A stretch of DNA of 64,000 bases from Candidatus Bathyarchaeia archaeon (GTDB taxonomy: Archaea > Thermoproteota > Bathyarchaeia > Bathyarchaeales > Bathycorpusculaceae), in the NCBI GenBank assembly GCA_050108095.1, contig JBNIDO010000004.1, positions 6,469 to 70,468 of the forward strand, read 5' to 3'. The stretch's first letter is position 1; every line of letters starts with the position of its first letter. The notes under the pieces are model-generated. The model saw nothing but the letters and a program-made list of their open reading frames with translations. It was not told where the DNA came from and did no database searches. The translations under genes were made by a program, and so were the position numbers. Of the stretch, positions 510 to 58,465 are shown piece by piece.

Positions 510-640
510 AACTTGAGGATTTGTCCTCAACCAGCCTGCAACCCATCTCCGTTGCAGAAACCAAAACACAACCGCCCTCCAAGCCCCTAAGAAGAAGATG
601 AGCAAGGGCGCCATTCTCTTCTTCTTAAACTAGAAAAACA
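510..640 (-). repeat. Dispersed three-hairpin intergenic element, copy 1 (AGAAGAAGA-type hairpin 1)
   Basis: Minus strand: TTTTTCTAG..AGAAGAAGA..TCTTCTTCT..GGGCGGTTG..TCTGCAAC/GTTGCAGG..CTGG.TTGAGG/CCTCAA.G; aligns by eye to copies at 47007, 53648, 58335. Confidence 0.8.
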
Positions 641-664
641 AAAAAGCCCCAGTCCTATGTGCTG

Positions 665-874
665 TTAGATTTGGATTTTGTTTGGGCTCGGTTCAGGCTG
701 TCCCATCAGTATCCTAAGCGATTGAATTTCTTCCCGCAGTGCGCCAACTTCGTTTTCGAGTTGAGTGGCTTTTGAGTCGGCTGCTTTTCTGAGTTCTTCC
801 ATTTCAGTTAAAAGGTTCTTTTTCTCGACTTCTAAATTCTTGATTTTTTCCATAGTGTCCTTTAGGCTGCTCAT
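665..874 (-). CDS. Small coiled-coil hypothetical protein
   Basis: 69-aa ORF with heptad-like E/K/L pattern. Confidence 0.6.
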   Translation of the reverse strand: MSSLKDTMEKIKNLEVEKKNLLTEMEELRKAADSKATQLENEVGALREEIQSLRILMGQPEPSPNKIQI

Positions 875-1063
875 TTGGGGTCCCCTGGCTGATTGTAGAT
901 TGGTGCTTTTGCACTTAAGACTTTTGCATCGGAAGTGAAATTAGGAAAAACTATGGGTTTTCTTCGAAAACTGAATACGTGTCCAGTTTGGATAGATGCA
1001 GTTTTATATAGGAATCTGCCAATTACACATAACTATTCCCCCGAATTGTTGGAATGTGACTGA

Positions 1064-2410
1064 ATGCGGAAGACCATATTTAAAAAGCTTGAAGCTCAGG
1101 GGCTAATCGCTAACTACAACCGCCTACGCAAAAACCTGCCGCCGAAGCTCCCAGACCGCGTCTTCATCTGGGATGAAACCTTCCGGGAGGGCCTCAAAGC
1201 ACCCACAGTTTACTTAACTTACGTAGAGCAGGTCCGCCTTGCCAAACTGATGGATGAAGCAGGCGTCTCAGTCATCAACGTTGGTTTTCCAGCAATATCT
1301 GAAGACGAAAAACGCACAGTCAAACGTATCGTCAACGAAAGCTTCAGCAACGCCAAGTTAACCGCTTCAGCTGAACCCACAAAAAACAGTGTCAACGCCT
1401 GCTTAGAATGCGGCATAAAAGAAATCACCGTTGAATCCCCAATTAATGGGTTAAACCTTCAGTACAAACTCAAATTAACCAAAGAACAAGGCCTCCAACG
1501 CATAGTCGAAGGCATCGACCACGCCAAAAAACACGGCGCCAACGTAAACTTCACCCTCATGGACGCCACCCGAACCCCTCTAGAGGATATCCTTCAAGTT
1601 TTTGAAGCAGCCGTGGGTGCAGGTGCAACTCGTTTAGCCCTCGCCGACAGCGTCGGCTTCATACGCCCCCTATCGATGCGTTACTTGATTTCACACGTAC
1701 GCGACGGGTTGCCTGATGCAATAAAAAAGAAGATACCGCTTGCAATCCACTGCCACAACGACTTCGGCTTAGCCTCCGCCAACACCCTTGCTGCCATGGA
1801 AGAAGGCGTAAGCTTCCTCCACACCTGCATCGCAGGCTTCGGCGAACGCGCAGGCATCGCACCGTTCGAGGAAGTTGTGACTACAACCGAATTACTATAC
1901 AACATCGACACAGGCATCGACCTAGGCAAAATCTACCGCATCGCCCAATCAGCGGAGAAAGCCTTCGCCATGCCCATCCAATTCCATAAACCCATCATCG
2001 GCGAAAACATCTTCACCCACGAAGTCGAAGAAGAAGTCGAAGAAATGATGTCTCAACCGCTAGTGTTTGAACCGTTCCCACCGGAAATTGTCGGGCGAGA
2101 AACCATGATTTTTATCGGCAGAAACACTGGGCAAACGCTTATCCAGAAACTGCTGGAGAACGCTGGCATACGTGCTTCACCTCGCCAAATGGACGAGTTG
2201 TTCCGCCGCATCAAAGGCCCACAGGAGAGCCTTGACAAGGGCGAAGCGCAAATGACCTACTACCAGGTTAAGAAGCTAATGAAGGACCTGCTTAAGGGCT
2301 ACACGATGGATGAGTTTTGGCACCTTGTCGAGCAAGTGACTCGCCAGCGCCCGAGACTGACTAAAATCAGCAAGAAAGGTTCCCAGCAAACCGCGGACCA
2401 ACTACTCTAA
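1064..2410 (+). CDS. LeuA/homocitrate/citramalate synthase (DRE-TIM) family protein with divergent active-site motifs
   Basis: DETFREG (cf. DTTLRDG), LADSVG, HCHNDFG, GFGERAG, KPIIGENIFTHE. Confidence 0.85.
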   Translation: MRKTIFKKLEAQGLIANYNRLRKNLPPKLPDRVFIWDETFREGLKAPTVYLTYVEQVRLAKLMDEAGVSVINVGFPAISEDEKRTVKRIVNESFSNAKLTASAEPTKNSVNACLECGIKEITVESPINGLNLQYKLKLTKEQGLQRIVEGIDHAKKHGANVNFTLMDATRTPLEDILQVFEAAVGAGATRLALADSVGFIRPLSMRYLISHVRDGLPDAIKKKIPLAIHCHNDFGLASANTLAAMEEGVSFLHTCIAGFGERAGIAPFEEVVTTTELLYNIDTGIDLGKIYRIAQSAEKAFAMPIQFHKPIIGENIFTHEVEEEVEEMMSQPLVFEPFPPEIVGRETMIFIGRNTGQTLIQKLLENAGIRASPRQMDELFRRIKGPQESLDKGEAQMTYYQVKKLMKDLLKGYTMDEFWHLVEQVTRQRPRLTKISKKGSQQTADQLL

Positions 2411-57048: not shown

Positions 57049-57759
57049 ATGGAGCGCTCAAAGAGTTTAGCCTTGCTTCTCTCAGTCGTATTGGCAGCTT
57101 CAAGCCTGCTCCTCATTCAATCATCCTCAGCCCAGTCATCCACAAATCCTGCCCCCGAATTCACCTTAAAAATTGTGGATAACTCCTACGATGTGGCGCC
57201 CGCTACCATCACCTCAACCGACCCCTATACTGGCAACACAACAACCACCACCATACTTGGCTACCGCGTAGAAAACAAAACTATCGAGGCAACAATCACC
57301 AACAACGGCGCAGCATACTACAACTTCGCCTACAAAGGACACTACGAAACCCAGTGGAATTATTATCCCTCAGACCCTCAATCCCAAAACGCTTACAACC
57401 AGTATGACAGCTACAACGTTCCCTGCCAAGCCTCAAACGATACCACGACCGTGATTGCGTTGATTTTTCTGCCTAAAATCACACAGGGAGAAATGGATAT
57501 CAAAATCCAGGGATTGTACGGTGGCTACCGCGCTGTACCATACGGGCACGCTATTGCTTTGCCTGGTGGTCCAACGTATGATTTCTATTTTGAGGGTACC
57601 GCAGGGGAGTGGAGCAACGCGCAAACAGTAAGCTATGATGAAGTTGCGTCTTCTCCGGCTCCGACTGCTCCAGAGTTTCCTTCAATGGCTATTCTGCCCT
57701 TGCTTGCAGCTATATCCCTGATGGCGGCAGTGTTTCTGCGCAAAAACTCCAAAAAGTAA
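57049..57759 (+). CDS. Secreted protein with PEF-CTERM-like sorting signal
   Basis: GGAGG SD at ATG 57049; signal peptide; APEFP + TM + RKNSKK. Confidence 0.75.
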   Translation: MERSKSLALLLSVVLAASSLLLIQSSSAQSSTNPAPEFTLKIVDNSYDVAPATITSTDPYTGNTTTTTILGYRVENKTIEATITNNGAAYYNFAYKGHYETQWNYYPSDPQSQNAYNQYDSYNVPCQASNDTTTVIALIFLPKITQGEMDIKIQGLYGGYRAVPYGHAIALPGGPTYDFYFEGTAGEWSNAQTVSYDEVASSPAPTAPEFPSMAILPLLAAISLMAAVFLRKNSKK

Positions 57760-57817
57760 TCCACACATAACGCCAACAAAACTTTAAGACGCCCCTTTAC
57801 CCAGCATTGGATGGAAC

Positions 57818-58303
57818 GTGATTTTAGTGTCAACAAACATTGTGGCGCTTGACCGCGCCGTATCCAACGCCCTAGAAATCATAGATCAAATCCAAGATGA
57901 GTTGGGTTGGGAGAGCCGCGACAAGACTTACCAAGCCACCAAAGCCGTATTGCAAAGCATCCGCGACCGTTTGCCCACCGAAGAAGTCGTGCATTTCTCC
58001 GCTAACTTACCCTTGATTTTCAAGGGTATGTTGATGGATGGCTATAGCCTAAAAGACAAGCCGCTGCGCATCCGAGACCTCGAAGGTTTCCTCGAATACA
58101 TTCAGGCGAATTATGATGCTTCGATGCGTGACTTGATAAACCCCGAAGATGCGTTTGTAACCGTGGTCGGCATCCTTAACAGGCGGATGGGCGGCGGCGA
58201 AATGTGCAAGGTTGCGGCGAACATGCCTGAGGCGATTAGGCGACTGTTCCGCGAGGCAGGTGTGGCGATGCCTGAAACTTCAAAGATGCCTGCCCCCGCG
58301 TAG
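57818..58303 (+). CDS. DUF2267-family protein
   Basis: AVLQSIRDRLPTEEVVHFSANLPLIFKG. Confidence 0.75.
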   Translation: MILVSTNIVALDRAVSNALEIIDQIQDELGWESRDKTYQATKAVLQSIRDRLPTEEVVHFSANLPLIFKGMLMDGYSLKDKPLRIRDLEGFLEYIQANYDASMRDLINPEDAFVTVVGILNRRMGGGEMCKVAANMPEAIRRLFREAGVAMPETSKMPAPA

Positions 58304-58334
58304 AATCCTCTGATTGACCTATCAATGGAAAAAA

Positions 58335-58465
58335 CAGCTTGTGTAAGTCGCCACAACCAGCCATCAACCCAAACCAGACGCGGAACCAAAAAAGCAGCCT
58401 CCACCAAAGTCACGAAGAAGAAGATGAGCAAGGGGCACCCTGTCTTCTTCTAATAATAGAAAACA
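58335..58465 (-). repeat. Dispersed element, full copy (AGAAGAAGA type)
   Basis: Minus strand TTTTCTATTATTAGAAGAAGACAGGGTGCCCCTTGCTCATCTTCTTCTT..GGAGGCTGCTTTTTTGG..GGCTGGTTGTGGCGACTTACACAAGC. Confidence 0.8.

Follow-up and report, generated by a model that had tools for sequence, protein, structure and literature searches.

Repeat copies in the analysed window

We analysed a 64,000-nt stretch of a Candidatus Bathyarchaeia archaeon genome (assembly GCA_050108095.1, contig JBNIDO010000004.1, positions 6,469 to 70,468 of the forward strand), referred to below as the window. Bathyarchaeia are abundant, uncultured archaea of sediment and soil, and their genomes come almost only from metagenome-assembled genomes (MAGs). 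Scattered between the genes of the window are copies of a repeat, here termed family 1, which is built around a 128-nt core and is probably a MITE (miniature inverted-repeat transposable element). A previous reading of the sequence alone, the original prediction, had described about nine copies of a three-hairpin element and had offered a structured RNA, a single-stranded DNA hairpin element moved by an HUH enzyme or a phased protein-binding site as explanations.

Seven of the copies that it placed in the window were recovered with nhmmer at E 1e-27 to 1e-37, together with a copy of the 3′ half of the core. A repeat finder joined 512-643, 16416-16547, 53651-53782 and 58338-58469 with 34783-34910 and 47008-47087. 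The copies at 6028-6160 and 42515-42555, which the original list had included, are members of a second, related family (85 copies, described below). Hairpin 1 of the family-1 core exists in two self-complementary versions, type A (AGAAGAAGA/TCTTCTTCT, 69 canonical copies in the genome) and type B (GTTGTTGTTG/CAACAACAAC, 76 copies). The family-1 copies of the window are:

509..647, minus strand: core of type A, nhmmer E 3e-35; terminal inverted repeats degenerate, with 4 mismatches
14858..14938, minus strand: truncated copy found with nhmmer, which covers no more than the 3′ half of the core (profile positions 63-143)
16388..16566, minus strand: best-preserved full element in the window, 179 nt; 5′ terminal inverted repeat CAGTTGATTT (3 mismatches), core at 16552-16407 with a B-like hairpin 1, 3′ spacer AACCGAAGAACCC, then 3′ terminal inverted repeat TGATCTACTT (1 mismatch); the nhmmer match spans 16407-16552
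34587..34722, plus strand: divergent core, first of a tandem pair, nhmmer E 1.6e-27
34777..34917, plus strand: core of type B, second of the tandem pair, nhmmer E 1.2e-28
47002..47138, plus strand: core of type A between divergent genes, found with nhmmer
53643..53783, minus strand: core of type A; the sister species has no copy at this site (9 nt there against 172 nt in the window)
58333..58473, minus strand: core of type A at one breakpoint of a segment that is inverted in the sister species

The truncated copy lies just downstream of a secreted-protein gene (14981-16120), and the same truncation is found in the sister species. The copy at 34777..34917 overlaps a mechanical 5′ extension of the open reading frame (ORF) at 34747-36399. 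The intergenic region orthologous to that of the 47002..47138 copy carries no copy in the relative G013.

Copy number, core and genomic context

Family-1 repeats are real and far more numerous than the original estimate of about nine. A profile hidden Markov model built from the seven window copies gave 207 matches in the 2.8 Mb genome to which the window belongs, 184 of them full length, and a rebuilt profile gave 203 (188 full length). The organism is a member of the Bathy-6 group of Bathyarchaeia, and a sister species holds 179 copies by the same kind of search. The core runs from TTTTTCTA to CAAGCAG and its edges are sharp: information rises from <0.4 bit to >1 bit at TTTTTCTA and drops past CAAGCAG(A), with unrelated sequence in the outer flanks. 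The family is old, with a mean pairwise identity of 61%, a median nearest-neighbour identity of 81% and few near-identical pairs.

On a crude ORF map almost all copies are intergenic and lie near gene 3′ ends. Gene context is near-random (convergent 51, divergent 39, co-directional 38 and anti-directional 43). In being small (162-180 nt between termini), non-coding and multi-copy (203 copies in 2.8 Mb, nearly all intergenic), the family has the build of a MITE.

Terminal inverted repeats and target site

The core is not the whole element. Terminal inverted repeats (TIRs), CAGTAGATCA...TGATCTACTG, lie 11-25 nt outside it and beyond the limits given in the original prediction, which had stated that there were none; they are kept in 15-20% of copies. 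At ≤1 mismatch the 10-mers CAGTAGATCA and TGATCTACTG were found beside 31 (5′) and 21 (3′) of 341 copies, compared with 0-1 in control windows that were distant or on the wrong side. At ≤2 mismatches the counts were 65 and 52 of 341, compared with 7-14 in the controls. The distance from TIR to TIR clusters at 162 nt for B-type copies and ~180 nt for A-type copies, and both length classes are bounded by the same TIRs.

No target duplication directly abuts the conserved core; one came to light only after the outer TIRs had been located. The dinucleotide TA adjoins the TIRs in 42/65 and 29/52 copies, against a background of 9.6%. Among 22 copies the flanking 3-mer is identical on both sides in 10 (TTA/TAA/ATA), where shuffled pairing gives 4.2 (P=0.0005), and TA stands on both sides in 15, where shuffled pairing gives 8.8 (P=0.0005). 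The target duplication is TA-centred, either 2 bp (TA) or 3 bp (TWA, that is TTA/TAA/ATA).

The complete element reads, from its outer 5′ end, (N)CAGTAGATCA(AA), a short T-rich spacer and the 128-nt core. Within the core the order is TTTTTCTA, hairpin 1, GGCGGYTG, a T-tract, a variable region, GGGTTGCWGGCTGGTTG, hairpin 3 and CAAGCAG, after which a spacer leads to the 3′ end, TGATCTACTG(N). Short hairpins with a conserved loop (CCCTCTATTCAATAGAGG, CCTCCTATTTATTGGAGG, CCCGTTATTTAATAAGGG) precede some copies, for example at window positions 34760-34780, and may be gene-end hairpins or degenerate TIR regions.

Insertion and rearrangement between sister species

The sister species is represented by a complete chromosome (OY969706.1, G053), of which 2.91 Mb was compared; its syntenic genes share 83-89% identity with those of the window. 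The comparison of filled and empty sites that the original prediction had proposed revealed 59 loci with both flanks syntenic. Both species carry a copy at 41 of them; at the other 18 the sister site is empty, in several cases with a gap of ≤10 nt. Insertion polymorphism between related genomes is therefore present (18/59 loci), and within the window it is represented by the copy at 53643-53783.

On contig 19 of our genome a B-type copy is nested within an A-type copy whose orthologue is unbroken in the sister. The filled site reads AGTTTA-G[CAGTAGATCAAA...TTTATCTACTG]T-TAAGATGG, or in short form G[CAGTAGATC...ATCTACTG]T for the termini of the insert, and the sister reads AGTTTAAGAAG. The nested insertion therefore defines the true ends of the element, namely the TIRs CAGTAGATCA/TGATCTACTG and the TA-centred duplication.

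Copies also mark a rearrangement. An 8.4 kb stretch of the sister (G053:C1:1119599-1128156) is inverted relative to its counterpart in our genome, window 53344-58312, and two identical family-1 copies in inverted orientation flank it in the sister. The sister copy at the junction that matches our 58333..58473 copy has the opposite orientation and 77% identity, and the A|B junction of our genome that matches the inversion is empty. This geometry is as expected from intramolecular replicative transposition or from recombination between inverted copies.

Two other sources were tried for insertion polymorphism and set aside. A contig of the same population (JGI 3300045917) is 99.99% identical and showed none, and metagenome relatives of a flanking protein, sought for empty sites, reach ≤58% identity and are too distant.

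Distribution among the Bathyarchaeia

When 185,579 species genomes were scanned with a pattern for the 3′ block of the element, nearly all matches came from MAGs of Bathyarchaeia (Bathy-6). Within the genus the family is present in 52 of 101 genomes, with ~20 at the scoring cap, many with 1-3 copies and 49 with none; this genus-wide distribution was taken from a sequence-only model (R1). Among 79 genera sampled across the class only one other genus carries the family, 77/79 being without it. A BLAST-based estimate of its spread (3/18 species) was too low and is superseded by the profile search. Copies thus extend genome-wide, to the sister and across the genus, and the concern raised with the original prediction, that the similarity within the window might be chance, does not hold. 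The distribution is a lineage-specific burst and decay, as for a transposable element.

Search for a transposase

We looked for a partner gene with domain profiles and among repeated sequences. DDE_3 (PF13358) had no match in our genome (G000), the sister (G053) or the relatives G005 and G013. DDE_Tnp_4 (PF13359) had none in our genome, G005 or G013, and the sister is apparently not among the matching genomes. DDE_Tnp_1 (PF01609) gave only a weak, broken fragment in our genome (E 0.005) and none in the sister. No insertion sequence (IS) was found among the multi-copy genes of our genome, nor among the few long repeats present on the sister chromosome. Phage and plasmid collections returned no match.

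Several candidates were rejected. The 379-aa gene at 14981-16120, which lies between the full and the half copy, has no Pfam match and resembles a secreted, membrane-anchored protein. Three viral contigs with the TIR-plus-spacer word were chance matches in coding DNA and lack the core. In the sister, a 1.28 kb inverted duplicate (L128:16790-18216 and G053:C1:660481-661760, 95% identical) encodes ORFs of 143 and 305 aa that resemble a small capsid/encapsulin-type pair with a protease or scaffold domain; it is not a transposase.

The best explanation of family 1 is probably that it is a MITE, a non-autonomous DNA transposon, without a matching resident transposase. Size, copy number, TIRs, target-site duplication (TSD) and insertion polymorphism are all as in MITEs, and only a resident cognate IS is missing. 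The TIRs and the TA-centred duplication are marks of DDE cut-and-paste transposition, not of HUH or single-stranded DNA transposition. Under this model the element would insert at A/T-rich TA sites, duplicating 2-3 bp (TA or TTA/TAA/ATA), with a DDE transposase supplied in trans. The class of that enzyme, judged from the duplication, would be of the IS630/Tc1-mariner type (TA) or of the IS5/PIF-Harbinger type (TWA). With no partner gene in either our genome or the sister chromosome, the family either owes its mobility to an outside source, which might be another replicon or a lost IS, or is by now nearly extinct. Most copies would lose their terminal repeats after insertion.

Several observations weigh against a MITE. 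TIRs are still recognisable in only 15-20% of copies and are decayed in most, and the only window copy with recognisable ends is 16388-16566. The evidence for the precise target duplication consists of one nested case plus the flank statistics, and most of the ‘empty’ sites are not clean, their intergenic DNA having diverged. No autonomous element with matching termini was found in our genome or the sister chromosome, and long TIR pairs (0.45-5 kb) enclose ordinary genes. DDE_3 (IS630-type) and DDE_Tnp_4 (PIF/IS5-type) are common across the genus, with 24/101 and 22/101 genomes respectively, but the genomes that have them mostly lack the family. The family is old (61% mean identity) and may not be mobile at present. 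Moreover, in the comparison of orthologous cores described below, both copies of a pair had to be found by the profile, and this ascertainment could account for part of the effect, though only part.

With regard to the DDE genes, the genus member G017 has 34 and 27 matches to DDE_3 and DDE_Tnp_4 and no MITE, and DDE_Tnp_4 is also found in a MITE-rich genome, G102. The anti-correlation between DDE genes and MITEs is an apparent one and may follow sub-clades.

Conservation of resident cores

Orthologous copies allowed us to ask how the core evolves once in place. Orientation is kept in 36 of 37 singly filled orthologous pairs, and cores are 75% identical compared with 87% for the flanks, which are mostly coding (13% different). 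Among 40 orthologous pairs, mismatch depends strongly on the information content of the column in the family profile:

High-information columns (≥1.2 bit): 50 columns, 10.4% mismatch between orthologues
Middle columns: 49 columns, 28.9% mismatch
Low-information columns (<0.6 bit): 38 columns, 45.1% mismatch

Information and divergence are correlated at Spearman -0.87, and high and low columns differ at chi-square P 5e-115. The overall divergence in the alignment, 26.7%, equals the direct pairwise value, therefore misalignment is not the cause. Likewise, orthologues are closer to each other than paralogues are (75% vs 61%), and thus the effect does not stem from concerted evolution. Purifying selection therefore acts on resident copies at the 5′ T-box, both hairpin-1 arms, the T-tract, GGGTTGCWGGCTGGTTG, and CAAGCAG together with the arms of hairpin 3, and ~50 core positions have remained fixed between orthologous copies of different species. 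Drift is seen in the loop of hairpin 1, in the middle region and in hairpin 2.

Selection for selfish transposability does not preserve individual resident copies, and the TIRs decay, which makes a role of the core at host level likely. From these patterns of conservation, the core has most likely been taken over for a role that depends on its sequence and hairpins. That role is predicted to be as a protein-binding DNA site or as an RNA element of 3′ untranslated regions (3′-UTRs), as in Correia or REP repeats. The original idea of a protein-binding site may accordingly stand for the conserved core, though for that part only. We suggest tentatively, and short of favouring it, that the MITE carries a domesticated functional module, the 128-nt core, which has been under purifying selection since before the two Bathy-6 species split and may act as a protein-binding DNA site or as a 3′-UTR RNA stabiliser or terminator.

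In a first alternative, family 1 is at heart a host-selected set of chromosomal sites, similar to REP, BIME or BOX, whose core spreads mainly by recombination and duplication, the minority of terminal repeats deriving from a MITE that captured or carried it. In its favour, core blocks are kept in orthologues (10% vs 45% divergence), whereas decay has gone much further in the terminal repeats. The variants form modular mosaics, A/B chimeras among them; GGTTG motifs recur, and the 3′ arm of hairpin 3 is replaced in G013 by a second GGTTG; and no transposase is present. However, judging by the nested insertion and by the statistics on TIRs and TSD, insertion involves whole units, like those produced by a DDE enzyme, and the A- and B-type length classes share their TIRs. 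Absence from half of the genus and from 77/79 genera of the class is hard to square with an essential site, and no binding protein is known. We regard this alternative as improbable, although it survives better than the others.

Hairpins and predicted RNA structure

A second alternative is that each copy encodes a structured small RNA, regulatory or catalytic, as the original prediction had proposed. In its favour, hairpin 1 occurs in three versions that all pair (AAG/CTT, GTT/AAC and GTGTGG/CCACAC), 90% of cells in hairpin 3 are paired, and in orthologues stems are kept while loops vary. Within subfamilies, however, the observed pairing equals that expected from independent columns (0.87/0.87, 0.89/0.90 and 0.93/0.93). 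In the mixed alignment 73.4% of cells are paired against 69.3% in shuffles, and changes on both sides of a stem are confined to the A/B columns; the covariation that had been sought therefore traces to the single A/B split. This difference is a single historical swap inherited by many copies and not repeated compensation. The earlier statement that hairpin 1 changes but stays paired is right in that there are two self-complementary versions. In 18 chimeric copies, with an A 5′ arm and a CAACAACTTCTT 3′ arm, only ~6 bp of hairpin 1 are retained.

The compensatory change in hairpin 3 disappears on inspection, since A and T at two positions are mutually independent and the commonest state, AGG/CCA, contains an A-A mismatch. 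Hairpin 2 is weak (66% of cells paired). Fold z-scores of single copies lie between -1 and -2 (forward strand ~-1.1, reverse strand ~-1.5), so the strand proposed for the RNA has no advantage in folding, and the G-U strand bias is a consequence of G+T-rich composition. The RNAalifold consensus energy is ~0.

There is no Rfam match for the element, at the gathering score or at E≤1. No BRE (transcription factor B recognition element) or TATA box like those of the organism’s own tRNA promoters (GAAAnnTTTAAWT) was found, the 5′ box of the element being TTTTTCTA after a T run. Orientation relative to genes is random, and copy number ranges from 0 to 200 per genome inside one genus. A family of small RNAs, catalytic or otherwise, is thus very unlikely.

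The least likely alternative, an element moved as single-stranded hairpin DNA by an HUH enzyme in the manner of REP/RAYT or of IS200/IS605 PATEs, could call on subterminal hairpins, a T-rich 5′ flank and many intergenic copies, but is contradicted by the absence of Y1_Tnp (PF01797) and TnpB (PF07282) from our genome and the sister chromosome (controls positive), by TIRs and a target duplication that HUH elements do not make, and by end hairpins that are unrelated in sequence, so that REP/RAYT and IS200/605 PATEs are excluded. The original prediction was thus right that the element is mobile in kind and wrong about a HUH mechanism, and the co-occurring Y1 TnpA gene that it suggested looking for is not in the genome.

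Further roles were tried for the repeat and rejected. A coding peptide or signal sequence (consensus frame VPPLLIFFLGAW...) is at odds with loop indels whose lengths are not divisible by 3, and all three frames of ~164 copies together contain just 10 long open frames. As a promoter, the element has nothing comparable to the organism’s own tRNA promoters. In a scan of window 1-20000 with a bacterial-type consensus for intrinsic terminators, 509-647, 14858-14938 and 16388-16566 were not flagged.

A second repeat family and other features of the window

Family 2 is ~170 nt long, with 85 copies in our genome and 109 in the sister. Its layout is like that of family 1, with a 5′ box rich in T, a hairpin of GTGTGG/CCACAC and a second, terminal hairpin of GGTGTGG...CCACAC, and the central box GCGGTTGC-T5-GG is common to both families. 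The window holds two members:

6029..6196, plus strand: family-2 element (E 2.6e-44) with a GTGTGG/CCACAC hairpin 1, previously listed as a divergent copy
42515..42555, minus strand: ‘solo’ terminal unit of family 2, TCTCTTTATGTGGGTGTGGCATGTTGAA, previously listed as a hairpin-1-only fragment

A solo unit, GTGTGGGTGTGGAAGCATGTTGAA, often closes family-2 copies, and a further repeated module, CTGTTGCTCTGCCGACC...CCCCTTAT, often stands in front of them. The TTAT/TATA junction between family 2 and this preceding module has repeatedly been a site of family-1 insertion. At the position of window 51575/51601 the sister carries an extra ~676 nt that include a family-2 element. Window 10021-10090 and 24887-24956 form a direct repeat of 70 nt (81% identity), downstream of two large paralogous genes, 7405-9936 and 22141-24783; its word GCATTTTCCATTCTT... 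also follows a family-2 copy on contig 96, and it may be another repeat module.

The only Rfam gathering-score matches in the window are a thiamine pyrophosphate (TPP) riboswitch (60 bits) at 29713-29823 on the minus strand, upstream of ORFs 29150-29722 and 28151-29149, and a tRNA gene at 48953-49027, also on the minus strand. ORFs 49876-51549 (plus strand) and 63245-64000 (minus strand) contain long, degenerate repeats of 15-nt period. One is of low complexity and rich in Ala, Pro, Val and Glu (families D1, D2 and D4), the other is rich in Gly, Val and Ser (D6).

Comparison with known elements

Archaeal MITEs are named in PMC13343696 and PMC3718332. Family 1 corresponds to no known named family, as the original prediction had supposed. 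By analogy, its nearest counterpart would be the Correia element of Neisseria (CREE/NEMIS), which is also ~100-160 bp long and present in hundreds of intergenic copies. Both have TIRs and a TA duplication (TA-centred and of 2-3 bp in family 1), no known cognate transposase in the genome, an internal sequence with host-level roles (for family 1, a predicted one) and an association with rearrangements. They differ in that the host here belongs to the Archaea, the sequences are unrelated and the TIRs of family 1 are short (10-12 nt) and mostly decayed. Moreover, the family-1 core has exchangeable hairpin versions, and any promoter, integration host factor (IHF)-site or RNase III function of it would be hypothetical.

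The Sulfolobus MITEs SM1-SM4, derived from IS630, IS5 and other ISs, are like family 1 non-coding, <300 bp and multi-copy, with TIRs and short duplications, and are mobilised in trans. However, their termini match those of autonomous ISs resident in the same genome, and the copies are young and alike, whereas family 1 has no resident partner, is old (61%) and has a selected core. The TA-centred duplication of 2-3 bp in A/T-rich targets is shared with the Stowaway (Tc1/mariner, TA) and Tourist (PIF/Harbinger, TWA) MITEs and with IS630 and IS5, and the (N)CAG(T/G) end of family 1 resembles mariner and Tc1 ends. In contrast to those elements, family 1 has no DDE_3 or DDE_Tnp_4 gene beside it in our genome and apparently none in the sister.

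REP/BIME, ERIC and BOX repeats resemble family 1 in being dispersed between genes, close to their 3′ ends, in containing hairpins, and in having modular or mosaic variants and conserved blocks that hint at use by the host. REP units are 20-40 nt long and tied to RAYT (HUH) enzymes, in contrast to family 1, and to our knowledge none of these families has its TIR and TSD signature.

Significance

Families 1 and 2 together make up ~1.5-2% of the genome. Family 1 marks assembly breaks, insertion polymorphisms and at least one inversion, of 8.4 kb, between sister species, and is thus both a driver and a marker of rearrangement. Its profile can be used to mask and annotate these repeats, which would avoid their being misreported time and again as candidate novel RNAs. 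A defined ‘orphan’ archaeal MITE, with TIRs and a TSD, no resident transposase and a core conserved in situ, makes MITE domestication in Archaea directly testable. If the core is indeed a domesticated module, family 1 would be an archaeal counterpart of the Correia and REP repeats, spread by a transposase that is not encoded on the chromosomes that carry it.

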